From Clostridia bacterium (GTDB lineage: Bacteria > Bacillota > Clostridia > RUG12999): 64,000 bases of DNA. Positions 1 through 40,207 of this stretch are shown piece by piece (position 1 is the stretch's first letter; each line of letters begins with the position of its first letter). Where the stretch lies: assembly GCA_045580815.1 (NCBI GenBank), contig JAZNOL010000095.1:6697-70696 (forward strand), written 5' to 3'. The notes below the pieces were generated by a model, which saw nothing but the letters and a program-made list of their open reading frames with translations, had not been told where the DNA came from and searched no databases. A program made the position numbers and the translations under genes.

Positions 1-3000
1 TTCAAAAGGACTTTCATCAGTAAACGAAGCTGTTGCAACAGTTTCCCCATCAGAATTTTTTATTTCGCCTTTTACTGCATTTCCAATAACCGAAAGCTCA
101 AGCCGATACCATGCATTGCCCGAAATTTTGTCGCTGAAAGTTGTCTCAAAAACAGTTTTATTATCAACAACTTTTCTTAAAACAGGTGTGCCGTTATATA
201 TGGGGAATGACACCTCGTAATAATCCAGCTCATAATAATTTACCTTTGTGCGAAGTCCAAATATAAAATGACCGCTGTTTTCACGGTAAATATCAACACC
301 AACCGTCTGATTTTCTGCTGTGCTTGTATCGACAGTCAAATCTGTGCAGGAGGGGAAATTTATTCCGCAACCGTTGGCTTTAATAACACGGTTTTCTGCA
401 TTTGTCGGGTCAGAAGCAATCTGAATATAATTCTTATTTTCGTATCCGCCAAAAATATGAGAATTTCTCCAGTTACCGATTTGTGCTCCTTGTCCGTAAA
501 AAGGCTCTTCCATTAATTCATAATTTTCAAAATCATCACTGTAAACAGTTTTTTGCAAAAATTCCTCCGCATCGGGAACATAACCGTCAATAAACGAAGT
601 AACTTCATCAATTGAATTGAAATTTGACGATGCTGCGCCAAGTTTTTGTGCAAAAGCTGTTTTGTCAGGTATTTTATTGTAAAGTTTTCTGTTAAAACCT
701 ATGTAATATTCTTTTTCTGTTAAAATTTCATTTATTCTATCTGCTGTGTTTTTGCCTTTTAAAAACGCAAGTGTGCCCTCTTTTTCGTAAGTTTTCTTTA
801 AATCATCTGCATTTTTAAAAGTTTTTAAGCAAAGACTTTCGCATATTTCATCAAAATATTGTGCAAAAACGCCTTCAGCCGGAATAATTCCGAAACTGTC
901 TCCATATGCGGAAAGCACGGATTTTATTTCATCTTTATCTGCTGATTCAATCACAGCAACCATAATTTCACGTTTGGTGATTTCTTCAAGTTTTTCTGCT
1001 GTTTCAAAAACATCTCTACACTCCACTGGACTGTATGTAACGAGTTTCTGAGCAAGGCTTTCCAGCACATCGTCAGCAAGGTCTGTTATCTGATAATAGT
1101 CATATTCCATTATTCGCTCAGCCAACGTGGTAAGATATAGTTTCATTGCATCTTTATCTGCAGCACTGTTAAACGCATTAATCGCCGAAGAAACATATTC
1201 CTTATAATCGCTGTATTTTCCTGTGCGTTTTGCATAGTTTCTGCGGGTTTCTGCCTCTATGTTGGACAACACAAAATTGTCCGCATAAACCAATCCGGCA
1301 TCACCTGAAATATTAAGTGCAACACCGGTGTTGTTTCCCGAAAGCTCAAATGGAGTTTCGTCAAAGAAAATTCCTGACACCCAGTTTTGTGAATATTTTG
1401 TTCCTATACTGTAGGAAATCACATTTTTGTTCATGGTGATTTTTAAAGTATTATCGTCACCTGCTCGGTTTGTGCTGTTTACAAAGGTTTTTTCATATTT
1501 TATCTCGCCATTTTCCACCTTGCGGAACCTCGCTTTGGTATACTGCGGTTCAAGAAGAAGTTCATAATAAGACTTTTCTTTGTCGTGCACCATTGTACGA
1601 AGTCCGATATAAAATGCATAATTGCTCTGCGAAAACTGCACCTGTGCAAAATGCCGCGAATCAAGCTGCGTTCTGTCACCGCTAAAATTTATTGTTGATG
1701 TACAGCTTGGGTTTGCACCGCCGTTTGAAACAAGCACCATGTTTGTCTCATCTGCCGGGTCAACACCGCTTTTTATTTTTGTGCTGTCCCCGTAGCCTTT
1801 ATAAACCGACGATGTTCTCCAGTTGCCGACAGTTTTGTTCGGTCCTTTCAGAAAATCTCCCATCTCTTCATAGGTTTCCATATCGTCTGTAACAGCATAA
1901 ACCGCAGCATCATTTATCGCCGTCTCATTTTCTCGCTCAAGAGTCAGAAAAACAACGCTTTTTGCAGGCAGAACGAATGATGAAAAATCCACTTCGTTTT
2001 TTTCGGTTGTAGTGGAATAAATTGCATTTTCAGTATCTTTTCCCAGTATTTTTGCATTAATATCGTCTGCCGCAAACACAGTCTGAGAAGTAAGAGTATA
2101 TGCATTTTCAAAATCAAAATTAATATCTACATCATAATCGGCAGATTTGTTTGAAAGTGCAAGCTTGAGCTTTCCGTTTTCCTGCGACATTGCCAGAAGT
2201 GACACTTTATTTTTCAGCTCTGAGGGAAGATTTATATCGCTTTTTAAAACATAATCCCCCAGATTGTCACCAAAATCGTTATATAGCTTGCCAATGCCGG
2301 AGAGATACCATTTTTCTTCGTCCACACCTTTTCCGATAAAACCCCACTGTCCGTCAAGAGTGCCCGGATAACAGTAATAGTTTGCACCGGCAACATCACT
2401 GCGGTTATACATACGGATGAGAAAATCCGCAGTAGAAATGCAACCTGTCAGAGCATTTGTGTAACTTTCCACACCCACCTCTGACCATTTTGCCTGTTCA
2501 GTAATAACCAGTTTTATGCGGTTACTGCCCGTTATGTCCTGAATATCTGACGAAATCATATCAAGATATTTTTCCTGTATTGCCATTCCAACGCCGTCAT
2601 AGTACGCGTGATATGAGATATAGTCAATTTCTCCGCCAACTTCTTTTAAAATGGTTTTATGCCAGCTTCGCCATTCGTCCGATGTTACATTATATTCTAC
2701 CGGATAAGTTTTTCCGCAGGCAATAAATTTTGCGTCCGGATCTGCTTTTTTTATTTCTTTAATTGATGCTTTGATACGTTTGCAATATTCCTCTGCCGAA
2801 AGTGAGCCGTCAAGCTCATTTCCCAACTCATAAGCAAAAACATCAACAGGATTTTCAATGCCGCATTGAGCACGAAGTGCACCAAGCTTTGATGTTTTTG
2901 CATCACCTGTCATGAACTCTGCATACTCGCCGTTTAACTGCGGTGATTCATTGTAAACATTTATTCCTACAACAAATTTGCAGTTTTCATCTGCGGCAAG

Positions 3001-3408
3001 ACTTGATTTTATCCATTCAACAGGTCCGAAATTTATTTTATCTCCGGTAAAATACCACACACCGGGAGCTCCGGGTGTTTTTCTGTTTTCGTATTCACCA
3101 ACCGAATTTTTCCAGAAAAAATTATTCAGCGATGAGCCTGCCGTACGGGCAAGAGGCATATATTTTATGCCTGATATGCCCTTTGCAAATTCGTCCGATA
3201 TTTCAAGAGAAGTTTCGGATTTCATCATTTTGCTGTTGCCGGACGACCACTCACTGCCGACCCCTAAAATTTCGGGGTCGGCTTTGCGAATTACCGTACT
3301 TTCGGTTATAACAGCCGAGGCTTCAAGCAATTCTACGGCATTTGACGCATACGGAAATACACCAAATAAAACCGCTATCGCTAAAAACATCGCCGAATAT
3401 TTCTTCAT
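1..3408 (-). CDS. Giant secreted multidomain protein, partial (C-terminus lies beyond the window start). Signal peptide, a clan GH-A-like glycosidase domain, two LamG-like 'DDFExYE' modules and a helical 'KYSDY' module.
   Basis: The minus-strand frame is open from ATG 3408..3406 to position 1; an RBS AAGGAGTGG lies about 9 nt upstream on the minus strand. It is missing from the ORF track only because it has no in-window stop. My manual translation gives about 1135 aa. It begins MKKYSAMFLAIAVLFGVFPYASNA, a signal peptide. YELGNELDG and LVITEQ resemble the acid/base (NE) and nucleophile (TE) motifs of clan GH-A. Modules start at DDMETYEEMGDFLKGPNKTVGNWRTS and DDFENYELMEEPFYGQGAQIGNWRNS. Confidence 0.7.
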   Translation of the reverse strand, partial: MKKYSAMFLAIAVLFGVFPYASNAVELLEASAVITESTVIRKADPEILGVGSEWSSGNSKMMKSETSLEISDEFAKGISGIKYMPLARTAGSSLNNFFWKNSVGEYENRKTPGAPGVWYFTGDKINFGPVEWIKSSLAADENCKFVVGINVYNESPQLNGEYAEFMTGDAKTSKLGALRAQCGIENPVDVFAYELGNELDGSLSAEEYCKRIKASIKEIKKADPDAKFIACGKTYPVEYNVTSDEWRSWHKTILKEVGGEIDYISYHAYYDGVGMAIQEKYLDMISSDIQDITGSNRIKLVITEQAKWSEVGVESYTNALTGCISTADFLIRMYNRSDVAGANYYCYPGTLDGQWGFIGKGVDEEKWYLSGIGKLYNDFGDNLGDYVLKSDINLPSELKNKVSLLAMSQENGKLKLALSNKSADYDVDINFDFENAYTLTSQTVFAADDINAKILGKDTENAIYSTTTEKNEVDFSSFVLPAKSVVFLTLERENETAINDAAVYAVTDDMETYEEMGDFLKGPNKTVGNWRTSSVYKGYGDSTKIKSGVDPADETNMVLVSNGGANPSCTSTINFSGDRTQLDSRHFAQVQFSQSNYAFYIGLRTMVHDKEKSYYELLLEPQYTKARFRKVENGEIKYEKTFVNSTNRAGDDNTLKITMNKNVISYSIGTKYSQNWVSGIFFDETPFELSGNNTGVALNISGDAGLVYADNFVLSNIEAETRRNYAKRTGKYSDYKEYVSSAINAFNSAADKDAMKLYLTTLAERIMEYDYYQITDLADDVLESLAQKLVTYSPVECRDVFETAEKLEEITKREIMVAVIESADKDEIKSVLSAYGDSFGIIPAEGVFAQYFDEICESLCLKTFKNADDLKKTYEKEGTLAFLKGKNTADRINEILTEKEYYIGFNRKLYNKIPDKTAFAQKLGAASSNFNSIDEVTSFIDGYVPDAEEFLQKTVYSDDFENYELMEEPFYGQGAQIGNWRNSHIFGGYENKNYIQIASDPTNAENRVIKANGCGINFPSCTDLTVDTSTAENQTVGVDIYRENSGHFIFGLRTKVNYYELDYYEVSFPIYNGTPVLRKVVDNKTVFETTFSDKISGNAWYRLELSVIGNAVKGEIKNSDGETVATASFTDESPFE

Positions 3409-3437: not shown

Positions 3438-6400
3438 TTATTTTGTTGCTTCAAATATAATTTTTGCCGCCTGTGCTCTTGTAACAGCACCCGCCGGGTC
3501 AAATCTGCCGTCAGGCATACCGTTTACAATACCGTTTGCCTGCAAGTTTTTAACTGATGTAAACGCCCATTCTGATATAGATGCATCATCTGCAAAAACA
3601 GTAACACTTTCTTTTTCCAAAAGTTTATCTGTGCTGTTTAAGATACGGAACACCATAACGCTCATTTCTTCTCTTGTTATGGTCTTTTGGGGATTTGCAT
3701 ATCCGCCGTCGCCTTTAAGAACTCCGTTTTCATATGCTGCCATGATATATTCATAATACCAGTCGTTTTCCGCCACATCTTCAAAAACTTTTACTGTTTC
3801 CGCATCTTCCGGTGTGGCTTTTTCAAGGTTAAATGCGCACACAAGCATTTTTGCAAACTCTGCTCGTGTAACGTTTTTATCCGGTACAAATGTGCCGTTT
3901 TCATAACCGTTTATAATTTTTCTTGCAGAAAGCACACTAACGCTTTCATACGCCCAGTGCGACTGCTGTAAATCGCTGTAGGGGCTGGTTTCGCCTACCG
4001 GTTTTTGCGATTCTATAAACGCCGCAGTTCCGCTTGATGCAAAGCTACTGCCGCCACCGGCACCGCCGCCTCCACCGAAGCTGCCACCGCCACCGGAGCC
4101 GCCACCCGATTTTTCGGGTTCATAGCTGTCGATATAATCTTTAAGTTTGTCAATATCAGTTATGGTGTCTTTATCCCTTGCAATAGCATCATAAAGACTT
4201 CCTTTATCTGCTATATCAGCGTAGTTATCAGCATCATAGCCTATTGCCGCCGCATTGTCTTCAACAATTGAACGGTATTTAAGCACACTTTCGTTTTTAT
4301 CAAACGCAATAAACGCATATGCTTTTTCAAAAGCGGTTTTTACTTCCTCAAGTGATGTAAACGTACGTTTTTTCAGCGCATCATAGGTTTCTGTCTCGTA
4401 TGCCAAGAAATATTTGTTCTGCATATCAACGCCGTAATAATCGCTGTATTTTTCAAAACTGTCTTTAACTGCATCACCGGTTTCACGGTTTGATGCAAGT
4501 GCAACAACAGTTTCTTTTATAAGAGTATCAATAAGATTTTTAACATCTTCAATACCGATATTGCCCGAAGCATCACAAAAAGGTGTACCGTTAACAATTC
4601 TTTTTGCCATAAGGGTTAAATCACCCGGGATAATATCTGAAACCATATCGGCATCAAAATCGTTTATAACCGATATTTCGGTTTTTAAAACAGTTTCAAT
4701 GGTTGCACTGTCGTTCTCTTTAATTGCCTTATTGATTTTTTCAATAACAGGACGTTTTTCATCCAGATATTCCTGGGTTTTACCTGCGGCTTCGGCACTT
4801 GAAATTTCACCGGCAACCTGCACTTTGACACTTCTTGAATTGCCGTTTTCATCTTTTGCCGTGATAACGGCCGTTCCCTCACTACGCGACCGAAGAACAC
4901 CGTCTACAACAGTAGCCGCAATAGCGTTTCCGCTTTGGTAAGAAACTCCGTCTGTCTTATTGTTTATAACCGCAAACAGTTCTGTTTTGTCCCCTGCAAC
5001 AGTTTTTATTACATCTGTCGGGTCAGTTTCAATAAATGCCGCAACTTTTGAAATGTCTGCACCCTCAACATATACAAGACGATAAGGTTCTGCTGTTGTT
5101 CTGTTGATAAATTCGCAAATATTTCCGTTTATGTTTTCACTATTTGATGTTCCTATAAGGACTTTATCTGACAAATCTGCTTCGTTTGCAAGATAGAATT
5201 TTACATTCTCTGCAAAATTGCCGCTTGAATATGCTTTTATTTTTCTTATTACCTCGGTTTTGCCAAAGGCAATGCTGTAACCGCTATCTTCAGTTTTAAG
5301 CTCTTTATCAAAGGCAACATCATAATAAACCATGTCTTTGGGCAGAGTCTGTGATTCGGTATATACGTCAAAATCACGGTACTCAACATTATTCACATAC
5401 ACATCACCCTGATCGCCCTGACACATAAACTGCATGGTTGCACTGTTGCCCGTAAGGATATATGGCTGAGGATCAACGTAAACCCCTGTTTCGGTATTTC
5501 CGTTTACTGTAACACTGTAAACAATGTTGTTTCCTGCAACACCTACCGAAAATGTCATCCATGAACCTACCGGTGCTTTTAATTCCAAATCAGACTCATA
5601 CTTCACTTCATCATTTTGAACCTTGCGGAAAGTAAGTGTACTGTTTCCCTGCTGTTTTGTTGCAAGCTCATAATAACTTTTTTCGTCTGATGACACCGCT
5701 GTACGTATGCCAAATCTTGCCGAAACCGATTTGCCAAATATATCGGCTTTTCCATATGTATTTGAAGAAATTCCGTTTCGGTCTGCTATAAGATTGACAC
5801 ACGCATAATTGTTTGCACCATAACCTTTTACTAACATTACTCTGTCGTCTTCATATGAGTTTGCCGGATTGCCTGCAACACCGGTTGTCATATATATACC
5901 CTGCCAGCCGCTGCCACGGTAAACCGCCGAGGTTTTGAAATTATCGCCGATATACTGAACCGCCTCAGTGCGTTCATTCATTTTAAGCTCATAGCTGTCA
6001 ATATCATCGTAAAATGCAAATTTGTTACGCACGGGCGATACATAGGGTGCTTTGAAGCTGTCAATAAAATCTCTTAACTCTTCTAATGTTGTTATCTGTG
6101 ATTTATTATCCGAAATTGAATAATAAAGGTCTGATTTTTCGCCTATCGCATTATATTTGTTTACATCATAGCCTATAATGCCGGCATTCTTTTCTATTAT
6201 ATTTTTATAATCGGCAGATGTTTTTGCATCACCAAATCCACCCAGAACATATATTTTTTCTGCAAGGGAGGCAATCTGCAAAATATCCTCAAATGTCTGA
6301 CCGACAAAAGCTGATGATATTTCCGTTTTATATTTCAGATAATATTCTGATGTTATATCGATACCGTAAATATCAGAATATTTTTCGATTTTTTCAAGTA

Positions 6401-13541: not shown

Positions 13542-13579
13542 ATTGCATCTGCCGCATATGCGGTTGCGGCAGATGCAAT
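13542..13579 (-). promoter_or_regulatory. Strong dyad stem-loop (15-bp stem) between the giant-protein gene and the binding-protein gene
   Basis: ATTGCATCTGCCGCA-tatgcggt-TGCGGCAGATGCAAT. It is flanked by T-runs on the plus strand and A-runs on the minus strand, so it is not a canonical terminator for the minus-strand operon. Confidence 0.45.
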
Positions 13580-31430: not shown

Positions 31431-31466
31431 TTTGACATTCCGCATAATGTCATATTATGATTTACC
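31431..31466 (+). promoter_or_regulatory. Candidate internal promoter (-35 TTGACA) overlapping a 6-bp inverted repeat CATAAT-gtcat-ATTATG
   Basis: TTGACAttccgcataatgtcatATTATGAT lies within the only sizeable gap (145 bp) of the plus-strand operon. Confidence 0.3.
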
Positions 31467-31555: not shown

Positions 31556-33241
31556 ATGTTTTCTTTGAAAAGTAAAGTTTTATCACTTGTTTTAGCTATT
31601 TCACTTGTTGCATTAACATCAGTGAATGTTTTTGCATCAACTGCTATTGAAAATGATTCATTCACATTTAACATTGTTGATTCTGCTGTTTGCGGCAACG
31701 ATGTTACAGACGGCACACAGCTTCCGACATGTAACGAAACTACACATTCTTATTACACATGGAATGTTGTAAGCAAATCAAATGAAGAAAATTTCAACAC
31801 AAATGCTGTTTACACAACCTACAACGGTAAAAAAGCCATTAAAGTTGAAGGTAACGGTATGCCTATTGAACTTCGCTATTATATTCCGGTTGCTGATTTA
31901 ATGCACTACGGACTTGGTTCATACACTTATCAGCCAAAATTTGTTTTGAGAAATCCCACAGCAGAGGCTGACCTGGTGGTTAAACCCACAACAGGCGAAA
32001 TTCTTGGTACAACACTTGTTGAATATATGCTTGGTGCACAGTGTATCAATACACTTGGTGCAACAAGAGACTATGCAATGTTTTATCAGACAAACACCTT
32101 TGCAAACGGTGAAGCAGCACCTACTGCTCTTCGCTACAGTATAACAGCAGCTTTTGGCGGAATAAGATTTACAGAACCTTTTAATGGTAATGTATCCGGC
32201 ACGGTTGACCCGGGTACTGCTAAAAAATATTCAAAGTTCTTTAATATGGAAAGAGACTGGTCTCTTATCGGAACTTATGTAAACGTAAAAATGACAGGTG
32301 TTACCGCCGGCACAACCTTGTATCTGCTTGAAGCTCCCTTTACCTGCACAGTTACAGAAGGTAAAAAAGTCATCGATATGAACATGAAAAGCGGCGAAGC
32401 AGAGACCTTAAACAGCGATGCTGATTTCACAGCAAGCTACTCTCTTGCAAACGTTTCAATGTTTACACATCACGCTGCTGTTGCTGCTTATAACAATGTA
32501 TGGCACAAATGGAACGGCAGAGCTTTCGGTGGCACAATTTCAAGAGGAACAGACGGCACTCTTGAAATTACAAATACCGCAACAAACACCATACCGCCTG
32601 TTGTTTATCAGAACCTGCCCGGTTTTGACGCAGAAAAACAGTATGCGATGCAGGTACGTATGAAAGTTGACACTTCTGCTACCGATGAAGACTATGTTCT
32701 GCCCGAACTTTATATGTTTGCCGGCAAAAACTGGGGTACAGACAATTGGAATTTAAAATATGCCGAAATTTCCGAAAATGACGGAGAATATGTTACATAC
32801 ACTTGTGTATTTGATAAAGGTTTACTTAAAGATGCCAACTCCGACAGAAGTGTAATAGGTATTATTCTTGCAAACGAGAGTGAATCTTTCCTTAGCATCA
32901 TAAGTGCCGGTGCAGCAAAATTCACTATTGACAGCATAGATGTTTATGAATCTGATGCAGAAGGCAACAGACTTGTTCTTGCAAATGCCGCTGTTACAGC
33001 AGCTAACCTTGACACAGACGATATGCCTCTCACATATATTGTTGCCGGCTATAACGCCGACGGAAGCCTTGCAGGTGCACCTGTTATCGAAACAAAGACA
33101 GTTGCAGGCGGTACAACAGAAACATTTAACACTGATATTGCAAGCTTCACAACATATGACAATGTTAAACTTTTTGCCTGGAAAGGTATTGGCGATTTAG
33201 TTCCCTACTGCGCATCCGTAAACGATATTATATCACAGTAA
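31556..33241 (+). CDS. Secreted hypothetical protein, 561 aa, with a C-terminal KLxxWxG small domain
   Basis: ORF track. The signal peptide (LKSKVLSLVLAISLVALTSVNVFAS) suggests a TTG start at 31565, 9 nt after RBS AAAGGAG. No recognisable catalytic motif. The C-terminal region ...YDNVKLFAWKGIGDLVPY is shared with two other proteins of the locus. Confidence 0.7.
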   Translation: MFSLKSKVLSLVLAISLVALTSVNVFASTAIENDSFTFNIVDSAVCGNDVTDGTQLPTCNETTHSYYTWNVVSKSNEENFNTNAVYTTYNGKKAIKVEGNGMPIELRYYIPVADLMHYGLGSYTYQPKFVLRNPTAEADLVVKPTTGEILGTTLVEYMLGAQCINTLGATRDYAMFYQTNTFANGEAAPTALRYSITAAFGGIRFTEPFNGNVSGTVDPGTAKKYSKFFNMERDWSLIGTYVNVKMTGVTAGTTLYLLEAPFTCTVTEGKKVIDMNMKSGEAETLNSDADFTASYSLANVSMFTHHAAVAAYNNVWHKWNGRAFGGTISRGTDGTLEITNTATNTIPPVVYQNLPGFDAEKQYAMQVRMKVDTSATDEDYVLPELYMFAGKNWGTDNWNLKYAEISENDGEYVTYTCVFDKGLLKDANSDRSVIGIILANESESFLSIISAGAAKFTIDSIDVYESDAEGNRLVLANAAVTAANLDTDDMPLTYIVAGYNADGSLAGAPVIETKTVAGGTTETFNTDIASFTTYDNVKLFAWKGIGDLVPYCASVNDIISQ

Positions 33242-33313: not shown

Positions 33314-36300
33314 ATGCACAAATTTAAACTTTTAATTTTTTCGTTTCTTATTTTTGTTATGACTTTCGGCACATACTCTCTTGTTGATGCTGCCGAAACA
33401 AAATTGCCCGAAGCAGACGGATATACCGAATTCTGCTTTTTTTCGCAAGGAAAATATTCAAACATCAGCCACAGCCATCATACCTCAGGGCTTAATTTTA
33501 CAAGAACAACAGCATTTGGCGGCGTTACATCAAAACAGTCTATTTTTATGACTTATTCAGAAAAAAGAGAAGATTTTGCATATTACAATTTTGGTATGTT
33601 ACGCCTCACCCTTCCCGATCCCGAAAATTATGCAATAAGTCTTTATTATAAACACCTTGGCACTACCGACAAACTCCGTATAGGTCTGCGTTGCTACGGA
33701 ATCGAAGCAGATGCAAACAATGACGTAACGGATTCAGGATACATATATTTAAATATTTCAGATGTTCCCGGTTTTGACAAAACAAAAACCGGTTGGCAAA
33801 AAATTGTAATTCCTTTCAATTACCTCAAAGAGTACGGCACTTTTGACGGTGATTTGTTCAGCAACAGTATAACCGAATTTAACTGGAAAAGAATAAGAGA
33901 CATTGCTTTTGTGTTACCTACTGACGGTATGACTGTCGGCACAGGCATTGGTGCTTTTGATGATATAAAAATTACAGAATATATTGACAAACCTCAAAAC
34001 TTCAAAAATTCCACAACTCAGTCCGGATGCCTGGTATCATTTGACCCGCCTGCCGGCAGTGTATGCGAAATCACCGGCTATGATATTTACAGAGAAACTA
34101 TCAGCATGAGCAAAAAAGTTTTGACAGCCGGCGAAGGATATTTTCTTGAAAAAGACAACAACCTCGCCCATTTTGAAACTCTTGATGCAAGCAAAACACA
34201 TTTTAGCGATACTAAACTCAGTGACGACAAAATGTATGTTTATTATATACAGACTCTCGGTGAGCGTGACGGCACATTATACCGTTCAATCCCTGCTGTT
34301 GAAATTGTTTCGGTTTTTGACTCTTCGGCACAAATTACAACCGACACAGCATTAACTTCGCCAAAAGACGTTTTTATTGTAACAAACGAAGCAGTATCAA
34401 CTGTTGTGTGGGATTGTGACGACACTCCCGACCGTTATTATATAACAAAAAACGGCAGTTTCTGCGGCAAAACAACAACAAATTATTATATTGATAAAAA
34501 CTATTCTGCCGGCGATGTTTACACCGTCAGCGCATTTTATTCGCATTCAAACAAGCTTTCGGATGCCATAACTGCACAAAACCGCAGTATTGAAACCAAG
34601 CTTGTCATAGACAGTTATAAATTTACCGATACTTCAGGCAACGAAGTTTCTGTTTCGGGAAATTCCGATGACATAAAAAACTGCGTAATAAACACATCCA
34701 ACTTTACAGGCAATCCTACAGGTGCTAAAGTAATTGTTGCAGTTTATGAAAACAGCACATTAAACGAGGTTTATTCTTTCACAAAAGAAATTCAGCCCGG
34801 AGAAACAGAATTCAGCCTTCCTGTAAACCTGCGTACTCTTACACCGACCGAATACAAACTTAAACTTATGATGTGGGACGGGTTTGGCAATCTTATTCCA
34901 ATTGCCGATGCGAAAGAAAATGTTTATCCTGCCAATGCAACAGAGTTAAACAAATATGAAATAAACGTCACGGACGAAACACGACAAACCATGCGTGCAT
35001 TCGGTTTTTCGCCCACACTAAACTTCATATCAACCGCTGACGGCTTTGATAATTCTTTTGGGTTTAAAAATCATCAGGCACTGGCAGATGTACTTATCAA
35101 AGAATCGGGAATCAGCATGGCACGCCATTTTGTAAAATCCGAGTCTATGAACTTTGACGGCAGTATTAATCATGAAATTTTCAAGGATGTTACCGATTTT
35201 ATTGATTATATTACGAAAAACGGACTCGAAACCTATATGCTTACATTTACCGGTCCAAGACTTGACTGGTGCCTAATAGACCCTGAAGAAACAAACCCGT
35301 CGCTTGATTTCATTTTCCTCGAAGAATATGAGGACGTTTACTGCCGGGCAATGGTAAACCAGATGATTTATCTGCGTGACAACGGTTACACAATGCCTGT
35401 GGCAATTTCTCCTTACAATGAACCCACAAACGGCAACATTCATCCTCTTCTTTTCCACGAGCAGTATTCAAGAATTGTTATAACCTTACGCAACAAACTT
35501 GACGAAGCGGGATTTGATGATTTGCCGATTATAGGCTTTGAAACTGCCAACTACACAGGCTTACAGCAAATTACCGGACGTTCACAGTCAAGCGACACTT
35601 CCTTCAGTTTCAGCCAGGTTGAAAAAATTCCCGGTTATAAAGATGCTGTTGACATAGTCGGTGTTCACTCATATGGTTCATCAGGTCAAAAGCCCGGTGA
35701 CATTGCTCTTTTTGCAAATTCTTTCCCCGAAAAAGAGCGTTGGATGACCGAAACCTCATTTGACGATATAACAGGTGAAGGTATTGACAATTCAAACCGC
35801 AATGTAGAAGCACTCAAAAAGCAAATGCAAGTGTTTGCCGGTGACGTTCAATGGGGCAGACACAATGTATGGCTCTATTGGCTTGGCACATATTATGCAA
35901 TAGTTCCTTCGCAAAACGATGTCCCTGTTTACATTGACAGAAATAACGAGCGGGTATATCAGTCACTTGTTTTTGCTACTCCCGGCAGTAACAGAATTTA
36001 CAGAAGCAATTTGTACTACGCACTTTCGACCATATTCCGAAATGTAAAACCCGGTTCTGTTGTAAAAGGTGTGGAAACAACATGTCCCACTCTTGTAAAC
36101 GAGTCAGGATACAGAGCCGATATTGCGGCATTTGAACACGAAAACGGCAGTCTTGTTATGCTTGTAAACGACTCCGACAATGACATGACAATGAATTTTA
36201 GCGGTCTTAAAGGCGAAATAGCTTCTGCATACAGTGTGCGTGACAGCCGTGAGGGTATTACAAAACTTTGCACAAAAACAGTAACAAACAGCAATATTTC

Positions 36301-36379
36301 CGAAGTATTTGTTCCTGCAAACAGTGTTGTTTTTGTTGTTTCGGGAACGGATAACACTCTCAAGAGTGTTGATTGGTAA
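33314..36379 (+). CDS. Secreted 1021-aa glycoside hydrolase (clan GH-A, GH30/GH5-like catalytic domain at the C-terminus) with N-terminal beta-sandwich and FN3-like regions and the KLxxWDG small domain
   Basis: Signal peptide MHKFKLLIFSFLIFVMTFGTYSLVDA. Catalytic motifs AISPYNEPTNG (acid/base) and RWMTETSF (nucleophile). Small domain YKLKLMMWDGFGNLIPI. Confidence 0.8.
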   Translation: MHKFKLLIFSFLIFVMTFGTYSLVDAAETKLPEADGYTEFCFFSQGKYSNISHSHHTSGLNFTRTTAFGGVTSKQSIFMTYSEKREDFAYYNFGMLRLTLPDPENYAISLYYKHLGTTDKLRIGLRCYGIEADANNDVTDSGYIYLNISDVPGFDKTKTGWQKIVIPFNYLKEYGTFDGDLFSNSITEFNWKRIRDIAFVLPTDGMTVGTGIGAFDDIKITEYIDKPQNFKNSTTQSGCLVSFDPPAGSVCEITGYDIYRETISMSKKVLTAGEGYFLEKDNNLAHFETLDASKTHFSDTKLSDDKMYVYYIQTLGERDGTLYRSIPAVEIVSVFDSSAQITTDTALTSPKDVFIVTNEAVSTVVWDCDDTPDRYYITKNGSFCGKTTTNYYIDKNYSAGDVYTVSAFYSHSNKLSDAITAQNRSIETKLVIDSYKFTDTSGNEVSVSGNSDDIKNCVINTSNFTGNPTGAKVIVAVYENSTLNEVYSFTKEIQPGETEFSLPVNLRTLTPTEYKLKLMMWDGFGNLIPIADAKENVYPANATELNKYEINVTDETRQTMRAFGFSPTLNFISTADGFDNSFGFKNHQALADVLIKESGISMARHFVKSESMNFDGSINHEIFKDVTDFIDYITKNGLETYMLTFTGPRLDWCLIDPEETNPSLDFIFLEEYEDVYCRAMVNQMIYLRDNGYTMPVAISPYNEPTNGNIHPLLFHEQYSRIVITLRNKLDEAGFDDLPIIGFETANYTGLQQITGRSQSSDTSFSFSQVEKIPGYKDAVDIVGVHSYGSSGQKPGDIALFANSFPEKERWMTETSFDDITGEGIDNSNRNVEALKKQMQVFAGDVQWGRHNVWLYWLGTYYAIVPSQNDVPVYIDRNNERVYQSLVFATPGSNRIYRSNLYYALSTIFRNVKPGSVVKGVETTCPTLVNESGYRADIAAFEHENGSLVMLVNDSDNDMTMNFSGLKGEIASAYSVRDSREGITKLCTKTVTNSNISEVFVPANSVVFVVSGTDNTLKSVDW

Positions 36380-36393: not shown

Positions 36394-38673
36394 ATGAGCA
36401 TTGCAAAAGTAGAAAATTACAACGGATATCCGGCGATTATGGTAGACGGTGTTGCATATCCACCGATGATGGCGACTATCCGCACTAATATGAAAGACCA
36501 TATTAAAATTGACCGGGAATATATAAGAGAGCTTGGCAAAGCAGGAATTAAAATATTTTTTGTTATCTGTGATACAGAATGGCTTAAACCCGGCGCATTC
36601 GAGCTTTTCAAAGAAGAAGCCGAAGCAATTTTAGCCGAAGTTCCCGATGCCTATCTTGTACCAAGAATAGGGCTTCATCCGCCTATGTGGTGGCTTGAAG
36701 AAAATCCCGACGAGCTTGTGAGATATTCTGACGGTTCGCTTCGCCCAATGCTTCTTTACACCGAGTCGTATGTGGCAGACATTCCGGCATCGTATTCTCT
36801 TTGCTCTGAAAAATGGCGTCAGGATGCCGGCAAAGCCCTTTCTGAAATCTATGATAAAATTGAGACTCTCCCCTATGCTGACAGAATTATCGGCTATTTT
36901 CTTGCGGCAGGCAATACCTCCGAATGGTACTACGGTGCCGCTGATGACCAGAGTGAGCATAAGGAAAGAGGTGCATGTAGCGATATAAGTGATGCTTTTA
37001 AACAGTATTTTTCAAAATATCTTAAAGAAACCTATAAAACAGAAGATGCTTTAAAAAAAGCATGGAAAGACGAAACCGCAACCTTTGAAAATCCGGGGAT
37101 TGCTGATTTTGACAGCCGTTTTTTTATACTTGATGTCAGCAAAAGCCTTACAAACCCACCTCATCTTTATTCAACGGACGATAAGCCGGCTCCGGTCTCA
37201 AACGGAACAAACATAGGCGAATTTTTAGATATAAACAACTATCGCAAAACCTTTGACTATTTCAGAGCATGGCACACCGGCACGGCAGATTCGGTTATTT
37301 ATTTTGCCGATATTATTAAAAAGAAATCAAAAGATAAATTAGTAGGTGCTTTTTACGGTTCTTTCGGTTGCACAGACTATCTTTATTGCGGCACTGCCGG
37401 TGGTTCACTTAAAATTTTAGATTCTGACGTTGTGGATTTTCTTGCGGCTCCCGGTGTGTATGAAAACCGTCAGCCCGGAGGATTTACAGGTCAGCGTGAA
37501 ATGGTAGATTCTTTCAGATTGCGTAATCGTATGTTTATCGTTGAGGAGGACACCAGAACTCACAACGAAAACAGGTTTTTCCAGAGATGCAACGAGCTAT
37601 ATACCGCCGAAGATACCATAAATATTATGAAACGTGATTTTGGTAGAAATATTTGTGAAGATATTCAGGCGTGGTGGTTTGACCAGCTTATCGGTGGAAA
37701 AAGATATAAAGATCCCAAGGTTTATGAGCTTATAAAAAAACAGCAGGAAATTGCAAAAAAAGCATACGAAAAAGACCGAACAAAGCACAGCGACATTGCT
37801 TTTATTTATGACGAAGAAAGTATTGCTTTTTCTTCGCAGAAACTGTCGTTTGATGCTATTGAGCTTATGCGGGATTATGAAATTTCAAAAATCGGCACAT
37901 CTGTAGACCAGTACTATCACAACGATTTTGCAAATCCTGATATGCCGTCATACAAACTTTATGTGTTCTGCAACGTTTATTCACTGACAGACGAAGAACG
38001 CAAAGCAATAATAAACAAACTAAAAAAAGACAACGCTGTTGCTCTGTGGATGTATGCACCCGGCATTGTAAATTTGGATAAGGAAAAACCGTTTGATGTC
38101 GACAATCTTTCGGATCTTATCGGTATAAAAACCAAAATGTGCGTTGACGATATTATGTCAAAAATCAAGTTTGATGGTGAGCCGCACAAGCTCGCAGAAA
38201 ATATTGACCGCGGCGAAATTCACGGTTTCAACTACAATCTGCAAAAAGGCGTGACGGCTCCGTCAATGAGTGCAACACCGACGTTTTTGTATCCGTATTT
38301 TTACACTGATGATGACGAAGCAACGGTTCTCGCCCATTATCTTGAAACCGGCGAAGGTGCATTTTCGGTAAAAGAGCAGGACGGTTGGACTTCTGTTTTT
38401 TGCGGAAGTAAAATTTTAAGCTGTGACATATTTCGCGAAGTTGCAAAATATGCCGGATGTCATATATTTAACGACCGGAGTGATGTTGTTTATGCAAGCA
38501 GAAACTATATAACAATACATGCGTCAACATCCGGCACTAAAATATTGAATTTCCCGTTCAAATGCCGCGCCTACGAAGTATATGAAGAAAAGCTCTACGG
38601 TGAAAATACTGATAAAATTGAATTCTCGATGCTTAAAGGCGAAACAAAAATGTTTGAGCTTGTTAAAGAGTAA
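36394..38673 (+). CDS. Leaderless (probably cytoplasmic) 760-aa glycoside-hydrolase-like protein, family unassigned
   Basis: An internal ATG at 36394 sits 7 nt after RBS AAAGGAGG and avoids overlap with the upstream gene; the ORF track start is 36373. There is no signal peptide. Candidate catalytic Glu contexts are GNTSEWYYG and MFIVEEDTRTHNE. The family call is inference only. Confidence 0.55.
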   Translation: MSIAKVENYNGYPAIMVDGVAYPPMMATIRTNMKDHIKIDREYIRELGKAGIKIFFVICDTEWLKPGAFELFKEEAEAILAEVPDAYLVPRIGLHPPMWWLEENPDELVRYSDGSLRPMLLYTESYVADIPASYSLCSEKWRQDAGKALSEIYDKIETLPYADRIIGYFLAAGNTSEWYYGAADDQSEHKERGACSDISDAFKQYFSKYLKETYKTEDALKKAWKDETATFENPGIADFDSRFFILDVSKSLTNPPHLYSTDDKPAPVSNGTNIGEFLDINNYRKTFDYFRAWHTGTADSVIYFADIIKKKSKDKLVGAFYGSFGCTDYLYCGTAGGSLKILDSDVVDFLAAPGVYENRQPGGFTGQREMVDSFRLRNRMFIVEEDTRTHNENRFFQRCNELYTAEDTINIMKRDFGRNICEDIQAWWFDQLIGGKRYKDPKVYELIKKQQEIAKKAYEKDRTKHSDIAFIYDEESIAFSSQKLSFDAIELMRDYEISKIGTSVDQYYHNDFANPDMPSYKLYVFCNVYSLTDEERKAIINKLKKDNAVALWMYAPGIVNLDKEKPFDVDNLSDLIGIKTKMCVDDIMSKIKFDGEPHKLAENIDRGEIHGFNYNLQKGVTAPSMSATPTFLYPYFYTDDDEATVLAHYLETGEGAFSVKEQDGWTSVFCGSKILSCDIFREVAKYAGCHIFNDRSDVVYASRNYITIHASTSGTKILNFPFKCRAYEVYEEKLYGENTDKIEFSMLKGETKMFELVKE

Positions 38674-38923: not shown

Positions 38924-38952
38924 TTGACAAATCACTTTCGTTATTGTAAAAT
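38924..38952 (+). promoter_or_regulatory. Candidate sigma-A promoter of the VanY-like gene (-35 TTGACA, 17 nt, -10 TAAAAT)
   Basis: TTGACA(38924..38929)-aatcactttcgttattg-TAAAAT(38947..38952). Confidence 0.35.
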
Positions 38953-38970
38953 ATAATACGGGTGATTTAA

Positions 38971-40197
38971 ATGAAAAAATGTTTATTAATGATAGTACTT
39001 ATTCTCTGTATTGCTATATCGCAGGTCAGTGCAAAAGAGTGCAGCACAGTCACAATCATAACAAACTACGGCACAACTGTTATTGACGATGGTTTGTATA
39101 CCGACAATGGTCAAAACTATCTGTCTCTTACCGATATCTGCGAAGCATTGGGTTCGGTTGTTTATCAAAACACCTTGGACAACAGTTTTTTTATTATTTC
39201 CCGCGACAGCGATATAATAACTCATACTCCGTCCACCAACTCATTTGTATTTAACGGCAACGAATTTTTTACCGAGTACTCATCTTTTTCTGATAAATTG
39301 CATGGTGCTTTTGTTCCTACAAGTATGATTGAGCAAATATTTGGCGTAACAGTTTCGCATGAAGAAAACGGAGCATTTATCTATCGCACGCTCGATTCAA
39401 ACTACTACCACACACTTATCGGCAAATTGTTAAATTACTGCCTTGCCGACGATTTTTATCCGGAAAACTTTATTCGCTATTACAAATATTACAGCAATCA
39501 CCCTACAACGGATCCGGGAGCAGTAATATGCAGAGTAAATATCGGGCTTGACAAAAATCATCATGACGATGCAATTCTAATAAACAATCCCAATACAAAT
39601 ACTGTGCTGGTAAACAAGCTTAACCGGTTGCCTTCTAATTACACACCGCAAAATCTTGTTACTGTTGAAAGACCATACAGCTCTGGCAGAAATCATATAC
39701 TGAATTCCGAAGCATTTGACCATTACAAAGAAATGTACAATGCCGCTGCAAAAGAAGGCTTATATCCAAAAATAATTTCTTCTTACCGAACTGAAAGTCA
39801 GCAACGCAGTTTGTATAATTCATACACTGTACGATATGGCTCAGGTCATGCGCAGAAATATTCCGCCCAGCCCGGATACTCAGAGCACCAGACCGGACTT
39901 GCGGTGGATATAAACAGCCTTTACACATCCTTTGAAAACTCAAAAGAATATGCATGGCTTAAAAACAATGCGCACAAATTCGGATTTATAGAACGGTATC
40001 CCAAAAACAAAGAATTTATCACTGGATATGCTTACGAACCCTGGCATTACCGATATGTAGGCGTTGATGTTGCAACTGTTATTCATCAGCAAAACATCAC
40101 TTATGAAGAATATTATGCCACATATATCTATAATTCACCATATACCATTGATAAAGACCGCACCTGGGCAAATGTTGTTGTAAAGTTTTACAGATAA
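38971..40197 (+). CDS. Secreted D-alanyl-D-alanine carboxypeptidase, VanY / peptidase M15B family, with an N-terminal copper-amine-oxidase-N-like domain
   Basis: Signal peptide MKKCLLMIVLILCIAISQVSA. M15B motifs SEHQTGLAVDIN and EPWHYRYVG. N-terminal domain: TVTIITNYGTTVIDDGLYTDNGQNYLSL. Confidence 0.8.
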   Translation: MKKCLLMIVLILCIAISQVSAKECSTVTIITNYGTTVIDDGLYTDNGQNYLSLTDICEALGSVVYQNTLDNSFFIISRDSDIITHTPSTNSFVFNGNEFFTEYSSFSDKLHGAFVPTSMIEQIFGVTVSHEENGAFIYRTLDSNYYHTLIGKLLNYCLADDFYPENFIRYYKYYSNHPTTDPGAVICRVNIGLDKNHHDDAILINNPNTNTVLVNKLNRLPSNYTPQNLVTVERPYSSGRNHILNSEAFDHYKEMYNAAAKEGLYPKIISSYRTESQQRSLYNSYTVRYGSGHAQKYSAQPGYSEHQTGLAVDINSLYTSFENSKEYAWLKNNAHKFGFIERYPKNKEFITGYAYEPWHYRYVGVDVATVIHQQNITYEEYYATYIYNSPYTIDKDRTWANVVVKFYR

Positions 40198-40207
40198 TAA
40201 CTGACAA

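Follow-up and report, generated by a model that had tools for sequence, protein, structure and literature searches.

Organization of a 40-kb locus with two divergent gene sets

The window analyzed here is a stretch of 64,000 nucleotides from a Clostridia bacterium (contig JAZNOL010000095.1). Its first 40,200 positions carry two divergent gene sets encoding 10 large proteins (gA to gJ), 9 of which are secreted. They also encode a sugar ABC importer, a histidine kinase paired with a LuxR-type regulator, and a regulator in which XRE is fused to a sugar kinase. This layout corroborates the initial annotation, which had described large secreted proteins in a locus of approximately 40 kb with two divergent operons, and its assignments of the ABC importer, the two-component system, and the fusion regulator (XRE with BcrAD_BadFG/ROK) were borne out by Pfam matches throughout. 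The features are as follows:

1-3408, minus: gA, secreted, more than 1136 aa, C-terminus beyond the window edge
3438-8006, minus: gB, secreted, 1522 aa, without catalytic domain
8024-8704, minus: response regulator, receiver and LuxR/GerE HTH (Pfam: Response_reg 6.7e-22, GerE 5.3e-10)
8694-10199, minus: histidine kinase, HATPase_c 1.4e-19, multi-pass membrane N-terminus
10258-11100 and 11113-12045, minus: ABC permeases of the BPD_transp_1 type (Pfam)
12134-13516, minus: solute-binding lipoprotein (SBP), Pfam SBP_bac_1 2.8e-25, lipobox LCAC
13542-13579: perfect 15-bp palindromic hairpin in the gC/SBP gap, possible terminator or attenuator
13592-17935, minus: gC, secreted, 1447 aa
17936-18661: divergent control region, 726 bp between the two gene sets
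18008-17980, minus: promoter-like site towards gC, in the control region
18343-18410: strong hairpin followed by a U-run (dG -37.6 kcal/mol, z -5.85)
18517-18545, plus: promoter-like site towards XRE-BadF, 11/12 with extended TG
18662-19768, plus: XRE-BadF (Pfam: HTH_3 9.7e-12, BcrAD_BadFG 2.4e-28)
19826-23041, plus: gD, secreted enzyme, 1071 aa
23059-25932, plus: gE, secreted, 957 aa
25947-28700, plus: gF, secreted, 917 aa
28714-31410, plus: gG, secreted, 898 aa, N-terminal SLH (24.6 bits)
31432-31461: promoter-like site upstream of gH
31556-33241, plus: gH, secreted, 561 aa
33314-36379, plus: gI, secreted, 1021 aa
36394-38673, plus: gJ, 759 aa, no leader peptide
38924-38952: promoter-like site upstream of VanY, 11/12
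38971-40197, plus: VanY/LdcB-type peptidoglycan carboxypeptidase, secreted (VanY 1.7e-39), with a Cu_amine_oxidN1 domain

Gaps within each gene set are mainly 13-90 bp, and the histidine kinase gene overlaps the response-regulator gene. Judged from spacing alone, the genes of each set would be co-transcribed, while sub-operons are suggested by the hairpin at 13542 and by promoter-like sites that lie inside the plus-strand set, at 31432 and 38924. The importer comprises the SBP and two permeases, and the locus itself lacks a gene for the ATPase. XRE-BadF joins an XRE-type HTH to a BadF/NagK-like sugar-kinase fold and is either a regulator or a kinase-regulator; its closest named match is the N-acetylglucosamine kinase NagK_SO3507 (2.1e-32, under the cutoff of that model).

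Pfam matches above threshold cover approximately 900 of the 10,289 residues of the locus proteins (about 9%), in keeping with the earlier remark that most of the protein mass belongs to unassigned modules. The present analysis raises the assigned share to roughly 33%, and undescribed modules make up about two thirds of the protein mass. Among these are what is probably a novel glycosidase family and two surface proteins, anchored to the wall, that form a conserved pair.

At the right-hand border, the VanY gene is set off by a gap of 298 bp and has a promoter-like site (11/12) ahead of it, and its membership of the locus is therefore doubtful; it is also absent from the syntenic ABC loci. The gene directly after the locus encodes an aconitase. 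An AraC-GH127 pair (48740-51449) had been cited as nearby substrate evidence but is not adjacent and should be discounted in that respect: it lies 8.5 kb from the locus behind housekeeping genes, the intervening genes encoding an FMN reductase, the aconitase, SecG, a uracil/xanthine permease, and MatE. Genes for Amidase_3, MurB, and a flippase of the SpoVB/MurJ type also occur in the window, at a distance of over 15 kb and with unrelated genes in between.

Catalytic domains distant from characterized enzymes

The gA/gB/gC set has three repeat modules (A, X, and B) in common, which were delimited by local HMM iteration; modules A and B have no Pfam or PDB match. In gA, a domain at approximately 30-500 is followed by module A (506-711), module B (736-943), and a second module A (956-1136+). 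The N-terminal domain is a divergent GH51-like catalytic domain of clan GH-A: it matches the arabinofuranosidase structure 2y2w (1.6e-10) and, far under the cutoff of the model, NCBIfam ArfA (8.6e-15), and the catalytic motifs GNE198 and ITE303 can be read from the sequence. The C-terminus of gA is outside the window.

gB consists of two copies of an A-X-B unit (A, 31-238 and 665-873; X, 239-441 and 874-1081; B, 442-652 and 1084-1296), a Gly-rich linker, and a triple SLH at 1336-1522 (Pfam 2e-39; 1.5e-14 against the SLH of Sap). In gC, modules A (41-244 and 262-464), X-like (465-665), A (666-868), and X-like (869-1070) precede a C-terminal CE4 (NodB) domain at approximately 1165-1440 that contains the YDDG motif. 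Its Pfam core at 1174-1275 (Polysacc_deac_1, 2.1e-10) scores 41 bits (cutoff, 23.1), confirming the CE4 deacetylase proposed earlier; the top named matches are peptidoglycan GlcNAc deacetylases and are very weak (E 0.002 to 0.014).

gD comprises a GH30-like domain (24-480), Ig-like domains, two Glucodextran_B-like domains, a CBM9 (774-932; 1.8e-29, and 3.9e-19 against PDB 1i82), and a Cu_amine_oxidN1 domain (964-1069), so that the CBM9-like module of the initial annotation stands. gI carries a distant GH30 domain at its C-terminal side (540-1014), while its N-terminal 540 aa are without a family match. The two catalytic domains are paralogs (25% identity, 1.7e-35), both with NEP and TE motifs (NEP153 and TE255 in gD). 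Single sequences did not reach the Pfam GH30 models and gave only a weak GH59 match. The family profile, however, aligns with GH30 structures from end to end (5cxp, 9.6e-36; 7n6h, 3e-33; 4fmv, 3.5e-33; 4ckq, 1e-29) and also 1nof and 3gtn, and the clan GH-A signature residues (R56, N152-E153, H225, Y227, W252, and E255) are all invariant in the family. Thus, the GH30-like glycosidases noted before are supported, and gD and gI are, on the basis of this profile, distant GH30 relatives nearest to xylanases. Their clade is small, with 254 representatives at E <= 1e-3 among 1.84 billion.

The earlier leaderless glycosidase-like protein corresponds to gJ, whose start (ATG at 36394) agrees with the N-terminus of its family. 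The sequence has no Pfam, NCBIfam, or PDB match, but its AF2 model (pLDDT 91) matches GH42 in Foldseek with E down to 4e-25, a TM of about 0.6, and 10-14% identity. The model comprises a TIM barrel, a middle domain, and a beta-sandwich; the invariant Glu177 and Glu384, after strands beta-4 and beta-7, are candidate catalytic residues. gJ is thus predicted to be a cytoplasmic GH42-fold enzyme. It belongs to a large family without annotation, with more than 635 homologs at 50-62% identity.

With gA, gD, gI, and gJ, the locus encodes clan GH-A glycosidases as claimed, although they number 4 rather than two or three. Enzyme specificity cannot be transferred from the matches, since the catalytic domains are far from characterized enzymes (approximately 1e-10 for gA, and by profile only for gD and gI).

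SLH anchors reside on non-catalytic proteins

SLH domains occur in only 4 proteins of the locus, gB, gE, gF, and gG, and none of these has a recognizable catalytic domain; conversely, the enzymes with visible ends (gC, gD, and gI) lack SLH. The view of SLH-anchored mosaic enzymes did not hold up in this respect. In gE, approximately 750 aa, beta-rich and then helical, are followed by a Gly-rich linker and a triple SLH (779-951; Pfam SLH 5.6e-34), and no family was found outside the SLH. gF starts with a triple SLH (33-180), followed by approximately 735 aa of small OB-like beta-barrel domains in which no catalytic fold was detected. Its paralog gG (30% identity over 893 aa) likewise combines a triple-SLH anchor with a chain of small beta-barrels. 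Pfam and further profile searches gave no assignable family for gH.

gF-like genes recur elsewhere among genes for polysaccharide lyase-like beta-helix proteins, GDSL esterases, GH88, GH2, GH31, GH4, and GH130, accompanied by sugar ABC importers. The gF-like gene and a preceding gene for a protein with C-terminal SLH form a conserved surface gene pair amid variable enzymes.

Gene order in related loci

Syntenic loci were recovered with the SBP as seed (37-57% identity), and 10 related loci with more than 5 kb of sequence were counted. The gene-order comparison suggested at the outset was positive: ABC and two-component genes adjoin homologs of gA, gC, gD, gE, or gF in 9 of the 10 loci, and therefore the clustering is not by chance. 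One locus, L098, keeps the order SBP-permease-permease-gD-gE-gF (gD, 35% over 970 aa; gE, 29% over 679 aa; gF, 27% over 597 aa), with the gE homolog in the same position as in the window. gD homologs also occur in L101 and L103, those of L098 and L101 being full-length at 34-35% identity. L092, L095, and L097 have tandem gA-like genes next to SBP homologs (29-31% over approximately 500 aa), and a gC-like CE4 homolog (30% over 282 aa) is directly upstream of the SBP in L091. The histidine kinase-response regulator pair adjoins SBP homologs in 8 loci, and permease homologs are found at E 1e-85 to 1e-108. Accessory genes include GH31, GH4, GH36-like, GH130, GH10-like, and CBM4_9.

The gJ/XRE-BadF pair is absent from all syntenic ABC loci, and the locus in the window is therefore a mosaic. 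XRE-BadF orthologs (1e-53 to 1e-59) adjoin gJ homologs in 7 other loci. Among 80 gJ loci, neighbors are of the MurQ type in 8, the XRE-BadF type in 7, and GNAT in 13. In other genomes, the pair forms a cassette with the MurNAc-6-phosphate etherase MurQ, which exceeds the TIGR00274 equivalog cutoff (320 versus 302 bits), and a 386-aa GNAT; MurQ and GNAT are both absent from the window.

Comparison with known systems

The overall design is already known and is that of Gram-positive, SLH-type polysaccharide utilization, as in the regulons of Paenibacillus sp. JDR-2 for xylan, beta-glucan, and starch (PMC4765114). Both have large multimodular secreted proteins, CBMs, and triple SLH at the cell surface, with an adjacent importer (SBP and two permeases), intracellular glycosidases, and divergent regulators. 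In Paenibacillus, however, the SLH is on the enzyme itself (GH10, GH16, and GH13), whereas here the SLH proteins and the gC/gD/gI enzymes are separate, the catalytic domains stand far from curated families, and the majority of modules lack an assignment. The Paenibacillus surface enzyme Xyn10A1 carries a CBM9, as does gD.

In the gpPULs of gut Firmicutes (Roseburia and Eubacterium), genes for glycoside hydrolases are co-located with those of a carbohydrate ABC transporter and of a transcriptional regulator, and all three are together in the present locus. gpPULs are small, contain well-annotated CAZy families, and are usually without SLH proteins; the present locus, in contrast, spans approximately 40 kb with 10 giant or large proteins and a Pfam coverage of about 9%. 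With Sus-like PULs of Bacteroidota, it shares a functional logic in which the glycan is bound and cleaved at the surface, imported, and hydrolyzed internally, with a sensor of its own, and the C-terminal-SLH/gF-like pair amid variable enzymes resembles the SusC/D pair, a role that we infer. Unlike those systems, it has no outer membrane, TonB-dependent transporter, or SusD fold, and import is by an ABC system. As previously stated, no locus protein has a Pfam match to SusC/D, cohesin, or dockerin.

At the level of single enzymes, gD and gI share with GH30 xylanases of subfamilies 7 and 8 (5cxp, 4fmv, 4ckq, 1nof, 3gtn) a TIM barrel with a side beta-domain as well as the NEP acid/base and TE nucleophile motifs. 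The predicted model of gJ, at 10-14% identity, shares its three-domain fold with GH42 beta-galactosidases, GH35 GlmA, and the GH164 beta-mannosidase, but its genomic partners (MurQ, BadF-type kinase fusion, GNAT, and GH88) differ from theirs.

Proposed function and alternative readings

The locus is probably a genuine polysaccharide-harvesting gene cluster, and its host is a rarely sampled spore-forming Clostridium-like bacterium. Secreted enzymes, wall-anchored proteins, importer, regulators, and a cytoplasmic glycosidase are all present, which upholds the polysaccharide-utilization logic proposed initially. We consider it probable that this Gram-positive polysaccharide-utilization locus of a spore-forming member of the Clostridia works as follows. 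Two divergent transcription units would start from the 726-bp control region. A complex heteropolysaccharide would be attacked and de-esterified outside the cell by gA (GH51-like), gD and gI (GH30), and gC (CE4 deacetylase/esterase), while the non-catalytic gB, gE, gF, and gG would be pinned to the cell wall through their SLH domains. With the help of the repeats A, X, and B, these proteins probably keep the polymer close to the cell, and they may do so for the enzymes as well. Oligosaccharides would be captured by the SBP lipoprotein, imported through the two permeases with an ATPase encoded elsewhere, and hydrolyzed by gJ in the cytoplasm. Expression would be controlled by the membrane histidine kinase/LuxR pair and the XRE-sugar-kinase fusion, the latter probably sensing a released sugar.

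As substrate, we tentatively prefer an acetylated plant hemicellulose of the xylan/arabinoxylan type, because the GH30 profile is nearest to xylanases, gD carries a CBM9, and plant-glycan-type genes occur in syntenic loci. The original hemicellulose guess thereby gained some support, as did its amino-sugar alternative. An amino-sugar-containing microbial or host glycan is our second choice, a doubtful one, supported because XRE-BadF and gJ form a cassette with MurQ in other genomes; this pairing with MurQ and GNAT points away from xylan. Spelled out as the harvest of chitin/chitosan, of a host glycan, or of peptidoglycan and other material from bacterial walls or capsules, such a reading appears unlikely. 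The polymer would be N-deacetylated by the CE4 domain, VanY would trim peptide stems, and oligosaccharides would be imported. In the cytoplasm, gJ would serve as an exo-beta-hexosaminidase or glucosaminidase, and GlcNAc or MurNAc would be sensed by the NagK-like part of the XRE fusion. The kinase match of XRE-BadF fits this, and precedents exist in GlmA, an exo-beta-glucosaminidase described as homologous to GH35 and GH42 (PMC6566704), and in MupG, a cytoplasmic muramidase with its gene beside murQ (PMC6262408). However, no muramidase, glucosaminidase, or chitinase (GH18, 19, 20, 23, 25, or 73) is recognizable in the locus, MurQ and GNAT are missing from the window, the secreted enzymes are similar to GH30 xylanases and GH51 enzymes and include a CBM9, and syntenic loci contribute enzymes of the plant-glycan type. 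The resemblance of the CE4 domain to peptidoglycan deacetylases, which would favor an amino sugar, is very weak, and VanY, which adjoins the locus, is apparently under its own promoter.

It is very improbable that the locus is mainly cell-envelope machinery, with gF and gG as an S-layer or S-layer-associated lattice, gB and gE as accessory wall proteins, and CE4, VanY, and the glycosidases remodeling the cell's own peptidoglycan or secondary cell-wall polymer while the ABC system recycles the products. The gJ-MurQ link is compatible with wall recycling, and Amidase_3, MurB, and the flippase are encoded within the window, but these wall-synthesis genes are distant, with unrelated genes between, and domains such as CBM9 and the GH30- and GH51-like ones typically serve the breakdown of exogenous glycans. 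Compared with Sap and EA1 of Bacillus anthracis and SpaA of Paenibacillus alvei, there is no sequence similarity beyond the SLH domain, and unlike these, gF-like genes recur in catabolic, glycan-utilization loci, always after the gene for a C-terminal-SLH protein.

Gene organization of the locus

The best-supported model for the two divergent gene sets at window positions 1-40200 is a Gram-positive polysaccharide-utilisation locus (gpPUL). They encode ten large proteins (gA to gJ), a sugar ABC importer, a two-component system, an XRE-type regulator fused to a BadF/NagK-like sugar-kinase fold (XRE-BadF), and a VanY protein, arranged as follows.

Genes and promoter-like sites of the locus (window coordinates)
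13592-17935, minus strand: gC, first in transcription order, 1447 aa
12134-13516, minus strand: solute-binding lipoprotein (SBP) of the importer, lipobox present
11113-12045 and 10258-11100, minus strand: two permeases
8694-10199, minus strand: histidine kinase (HK)
8024-8704, minus strand: LuxR-type response regulator (RR)
3438-8006, minus strand: gB, 1522 aa
1-3408, minus strand: gA, last in order, >1136 aa, C-terminus beyond the window
18662-19768, plus strand: XRE-BadF fusion
19826-23041, plus strand: gD
23059-25932, plus strand: gE
25947-28700, plus strand: gF
28714-31410, plus strand: gG
31556-33241, plus strand: gH
33314-36379, plus strand: gI
36394-38673, plus strand: gJ
38971-40197, plus strand: VanY
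18517-18545, plus strand: promoter-like site (11/12, with extended TG), edge of the divergent region
18008-17980, minus strand: promoter-like site, edge of the divergent region
31432-31461: promoter-like site (11/12) ahead of gH
38924-38952: promoter-like site (11/12) ahead of VanY

Every large protein of the locus but gJ carries a leader peptide. Intergenic gaps inside each divergent set are mostly 13-90 bp, and the 726-bp divergent region (17936-18661) is flanked by the best promoter-like sites. Based on this spacing, the promoter-like sites and the conserved synteny described below, the genes would be co-transcribed within each set and co-regulated. The gap between gC and the SBP gene contains a perfect 15-bp hairpin, and Rfam returned no RNA family anywhere in the window. 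Another, strong hairpin (18343-18410; dG -37.6 kcal/mol, z -5.85) lies in the divergent region upstream of the XRE-BadF promoter-like site. It has 17-nt G/C-rich arms with 94% complementarity and a U-run behind them, and thereby resembles an intrinsic terminator or insulator, although no gene precedes it.

Searches against Pfam and NCBIfam confirmed the ABC and two-component parts and identified the XRE-BadF regulator as HTH_3 plus BcrAD_BadFG/ROK, while the VanY protein combines a VanY domain with Cu_amine_oxidN1 (residues 38-134). As the initial annotation had proposed, most of the protein mass lies outside named families: Pfam matches above threshold cover about 900 of the 10,289 residues (~9%) of the ten large proteins, and gA, gH, gI and gJ are devoid of any Pfam match. 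Isolated segments (repeat modules A, X and B, gE, the C-terminal part of gF, gH, and the N-terminal part of gI) likewise gave nothing useful in Pfam at E-values up to 1, the sole exception being a weak Big_2 match in module X.

SLH proteins and repeat modules

In Pfam and NCBIfam searches, gB and gE end in a triple SLH domain, by which SLH-anchored surface proteins are defined; gG, and marginally gF, carry SLH at the N-terminus. The window contains neither csaB nor secondary cell-wall polymer genes. The earlier description of the enzymes themselves as SLH-anchored did not hold, since gC, gD and gI lack SLH, gD ending in Cu_amine_oxidN1 instead, and the four SLH proteins have no recognisable catalytic domain. 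The latter (gB, gE, gF and gG) look like anchors, binders or scaffolds. gF and gG are paralogous (30% identity over 893 aa), and the gF family has few members, as even a profile search yields about 16 full-length clusters. An outer-membrane beta-barrel of the OmpM/SlpA type known from diderm Firmicutes was considered for gF and rejected, as its model shows small domains in a chain and spore genes are present in the host; whole-chain Foldseek matches of gF to DDB1 (TM 0.07-0.08) were dismissed as noise.

Cu_amine_oxidN1 recurs on secreted proteins without SLH, namely gD, VanY, L104:2618-6343, L099:18992-21338 and L005:190-5814 (L-numbers designate related loci in other genomes), and two of its bearers in L104 are GH10-like giants. 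The domain may offer another means of wall association or docking.

Three repeat modules were delimited in gA, gB and gC by local HMM iteration and BLAST. Module A (~205 aa, seven copies) starts with F-x-D-D-F-E-D-Y-E, module X spans ~200 aa with a weakly Big_2-like second half, and module B (~210 aa, three copies) has a helical look from its sequence. Accordingly, gB reads as A-X-B twice followed by SLH, gC as A, A-X, A-X followed by CE4, and gA as a GH51-like domain followed by A-B-A and more. Modules A and B have no Pfam match at E-values up to 1, a profile of the seven A copies matched no PDB sequence, and a scan of the metagenome collection with the gC copies of module A returned no relatives. 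An eye-level guess from the sequence would make module A ConA/LamG-like.

Extracellular enzymes

Residues 76-276 of gA partially match GH51 arabinofuranosidases (PDB 2y2w, 1.6e-10; NCBIfam ArfA, 8.6e-15, 54.6 bits versus a cutoff of 625), with GNE198 and ITE303 at the positions expected for the clan GH-A acid/base and nucleophile. gC contains a CE4 (NodB homology) domain at residues 1174-1275 (41.1 bits versus a Pfam cutoff of 23.1; 43.1 bits for the isolated C-terminal part). By eye, the YDDG motif is present, and the His pair (HELANH/HSSH) is non-canonical relative to the H-S/T-x-x-H spacing. gD carries a CBM9 module (103.4 bits versus a Pfam cutoff of 23.4; PDB 1i82, 3.9e-19), two Glucodextran_B-like domains, and Cu_amine_oxidN1 at residues 964-1069.

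Furthermore, gD 24-480 is paralogous to gI 540-1014 (25% identity, 1.7e-35), and both contain NEP and TE motifs, corresponding to the clan GH-A pair of an acid/base after beta-4 (NEP) and a nucleophile after beta-7 (TE). The single sequences score below the Pfam GH30 models and give a weak GH59 match (21.9-23.9 bits versus a cutoff of 27). An exhaustive profile search found 254 representatives of this clade at E <= 1e-3 among 1.84 billion, and R56, N152-E153, H225, Y227, W252 and E255 are invariant in a 36-sequence alignment. The profile of these 36 sequences aligns with entire GH30 structures (1e-35 to 1e-27), with xylan-active subfamilies in the top ranks (5cxp, 9.6e-36; 7n6h, 3e-33; 4fmv, 3.5e-33; 4ckq, 1e-29; 1nof; 3gtn) and glucosylceramidases far lower (~1e-5). 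The full-length match and the invariant residues argue that the catalytic domains of gD and gI are distant GH30 relatives that are probably active. The comparison of this clade covered Pfam, NCBIfam and PDB, and a newly established CAZy family may already include it.

The leaderless protein gJ and its genomic neighbourhoods

gJ has no sequence match in Pfam (Glyco_hydro_42 included), NCBIfam or PDB. Its family is nevertheless well conserved: a single search retrieved >635 homologs (50-62% identity), none of them named, and 227 loci were found across 185,579 species genomes, mostly from ruminant and human gut Clostridia and also from Oligosphaera ethanolica and a Phycisphaerae MAG. The AlphaFold (AF2) model (pLDDT 91, pTM 0.93) comprises a TIM barrel, a middle domain and a beta-sandwich, and Foldseek relates it to GH42 beta-galactosidases (E 4e-25, TM ~0.6, 10-14% identity), with further fold matches to a GH35 beta-1,2-glucosyltransferase and a GH164 beta-mannosidase. 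E177 and E384 are invariant and follow strands 167-171 (beta-4) and 380-385 (beta-7) of the model, on which basis we infer that they could form the catalytic pair. gJ may be the founder of an undescribed GH family with a GH42-like fold, a novelty that is relative to Pfam, NCBIfam and PDB, as a newly established CAZy family may already include gJ.

Orthologs of the XRE-BadF regulator (1e-53 to 1e-59) adjoin gJ orthologs in 7 of 80 gJ loci, where the usual order is regulator, MurQ (above the TIGR00274 equivalog cutoff), gJ and a 386-aa GNAT protein. The window contains neither MurQ nor GNAT; relative to a MurNAc catabolic cassette of the MurK/MurQ type, the BadF-type fusion is present and MurQ is absent. 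Moreover, gJ and the regulator occur in none of the loci related through the ABC importer. Together, these two absences indicate that the plus-strand unit is a mosaic, in which the conserved regulator/gJ pair brackets a conserved gD-gE-gF block.

In gut Clostridia, the XRE-BadF/NagK-like regulator, MurQ, the gJ-family protein and the 386-aa GNAT (Acetyltransf_9) form a four-gene cassette without a transporter (L022, L023/L086, L020, L056, L063), which may represent an undescribed route for MurNAc-containing disaccharides. Members of the gJ family could be cytoplasmic exo-beta-hexosaminidases or glucosaminidases, and in other Clostridia the family could complete a MurK-MurQ-GNAT recycling of (de-N-acetylated) muropeptide sugars.

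Another SLH-based locus type is centred on gJ homologs (L061, L062, L064). It runs from AraC through a CBM4_9 protein, one or two N-terminal-SLH proteins (750 aa) and a C-terminal-SLH protein (296 aa) to gJ, and continues with an alpha/beta-hydrolase esterase (206 aa), a protein without family (880-959 aa), the SBP, a pair of permeases and, last, an SLH+Big_2 protein.

Conservation of the SLH pair and the ABC/two-component core

The regulator/gJ pair is one of three independent neighbourhood signals, the others being an SLH pair and an ABC/two-component core. In all eight loci with a visible gene upstream of a gF-like gene (the window, L004, L005, L087, L088, L089, L098 and L099), the gene directly ahead encodes a triple SLH at or near the C-terminus, and the N-terminal parts of these upstream proteins are variable. 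The second member of the pair, the gF-like protein, combines an N-terminal triple SLH with a chain of OB-like barrels. The surroundings include beta-helix lyase-like proteins, GDSL esterases, GH88, GH2, a DUF1080-type domain, SBP/permease sets and an HK/AraC pair. The pair may be a dedicated wall-anchored glycan-capture apparatus and, in that case, would mark a class of clostridial PULs as SusC/D marks those of Bacteroidota.

A scan seeded with the SBP recovered relatives at 37-57% identity. Conserved synteny, which had been set beforehand as the test on which the locus could fail, came out in its favour: of the 10 loci exceeding 5 kb, 9 have SBP-permease-permease next to homologs of secreted proteins from the window; an HK-LuxR pair is also present in eight of the ABC-related loci. 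L098 retains the order SBP, permease, permease, gD (35% over 970 aa), gE (29% over 679 aa) and gF (27% over 597 aa). Homologs of gD and gE occur in L101 (gD, 34% over 1010 aa), a gD homolog in L103, gF-like proteins in L099 and L104, tandem gA-like genes in L092, L095 and L097 (29-31% over ~500 aa), and a gC-like CE4 protein directly upstream of the SBP in L091. Accessory genes encode GH31, GH4, melibiase-like, GH130 and CBM4_9 proteins as well as two giant GH10-like proteins with Cu_amine_oxidN1.

Between the permease and the gA-like genes of L092 (8497-12925) lie two neighbouring proteins without family (600 and 867 aa), which are internally duplicated mutual relatives (43-49% identity); at this position, L095 and L097 share a different conserved protein, again without family (36% identity; 508 and 538 aa).

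Substrate and proposed mechanism

The CE4 family includes acetylxylan esterases, and we count the domain in gC towards a hemicellulose of the xylan type. The ranking of xylanases first by the GH30 profile, the match of the gD CBM9 to a Thermotoga xylanase module, the GH51-like domain of gA, and the plant-glycan type of the accessory enzymes in syntenic loci point in the same direction, so that we tentatively favour this substrate at somewhat less than even odds. An amino-sugar-containing glycan is a less likely candidate, for which several features speak: the NagK-like domain of the regulator, the pairing of gJ with MurQ and GNAT elsewhere, the GH88-like neighbour in five gJ loci, weak peptidoglycan-deacetylase matches of the gC CE4 domain, and the adjacent VanY gene. 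Precedents exist in GlmA, a GH35/GH42-like exo-beta-glucosaminidase (PMC6566704), MupG, a cytoplasmic muramidase encoded beside murQ (PMC6262408), and NamZ, likewise cited as a muramidase (PMC8054146), but gJ falls outside all three families; its assignment to MupG or NamZ was rejected as gJ lacks any Pfam match. The probability that is left falls to some other heteropolysaccharide.

For the gpPUL model, secreted GH51-like, GH30-like and CE4 enzymes would act at the cell surface, on a polymer that would be held there by modules A, X and B and by the SLH proteins that lack a recognisable catalytic domain. Oligosaccharides would then enter through the ABC system and be hydrolysed by gJ in the cytoplasm, with expression presumably under the two sensory systems. 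Of this scheme, the identities, motifs, folds and synteny are established, and the binding roles, the co-transcription and the substrate are inferred.

Comparison with known systems

In Paenibacillus sp. JDR-2, surface-anchored multimodular SLH/CBM proteins, an ABC importer, intracellular glycosidases and divergent regulators have been described (PMC4765114), and the overall design of the locus is thus already established. Moreover, the co-location of enzyme, carbohydrate transporter and regulator that defines a gpPUL is found here, with GH51-like, two GH30-like, GH42-fold and CE4 enzymes, the SBP and two permeases, and HK/RR and XRE-BadF. Given both the precedent and this fit, the concept of the locus is not new. 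It differs from Sus-like PULs of Bacteroidota in that no locus protein has a Pfam match to SusC (TonB-dependent transporter) or SusD and the host is a spore-former (GerA), and from cellulosomes, with their cohesin scaffoldins and dockerin enzymes, in that Cohesin and Dockerin had no match at E <= 0.01 in locus proteins.

What is new is that catalysis and SLH anchoring reside on separate proteins, that a conserved SLH protein pair recurs among variable enzymes, and that the locus contains a small GH30-related clade and a GH51-like clade, gJ with its large unannotated GH42-fold family and recurrent MurQ link, three repeat modules, and several large regions without family. That the SLH-pair capture apparatus and the gJ-founded GH family would both prove to be new kinds of component we consider doubtful as a joint reading.

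Surface glycan handling without cellulosomes is poorly described in Gram-positive anaerobes, above all in Clostridia of the gut and of bioreactors that have not been cultured. The locus and its relatives supply testable parts (the GH30-related and GH51-like clades, the gJ family, the three modules and the SLH pair); assigning activities to them would improve CAZyme annotation of metagenomes and might expose a missing step of amino-sugar or muropeptide catabolism in Clostridia.

Surroundings of the locus

Directly downstream, the locus is followed by an aconitase gene. An AraC-GH127 pair had been cited as nearby evidence, but it lies at 48740-51449, beyond FMN reductase, aconitase, SecG, permease and MatE genes, and was rejected as part of the locus because housekeeping and other genes intervene. 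At 48740-52280, genes for a GH127 beta-L-arabinofuranosidase-family protein and an amidohydrolase diverge from AraC (minus strand) and form with it a separate small sugar unit 8.5 kb off the locus; an AraC+GH127 pair also occurs near the gJ homolog in L001. The remaining window genes (GerA, Amidase_3, SpoVB/MurJ-like flippase, RapZ, MurB, ROK kinase and HprK) show that the DNA is chromosomal and comes from a spore-forming Firmicute. At 90% clustering, each of the ten window proteins checked stands in a singleton or near-singleton cluster.

Outside the locus, 53364-54668 (minus strand) encodes a further SLH protein of 434 aa with two Pfam SLH stretches, the best at residues 145-188; the rest of it has no family assignment. 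A 284-aa ORF (41359-42213) has a sub-threshold PGM_PMM_II match only, and a 171-aa ORF (40255-40770) overlapping the FMN reductase gene is probably spurious. Finally, a Cu/Zn superoxide dismutase (Sod_Cu, 1.5e-22) is encoded at 52343-52828 in this apparently anaerobic spore-former.
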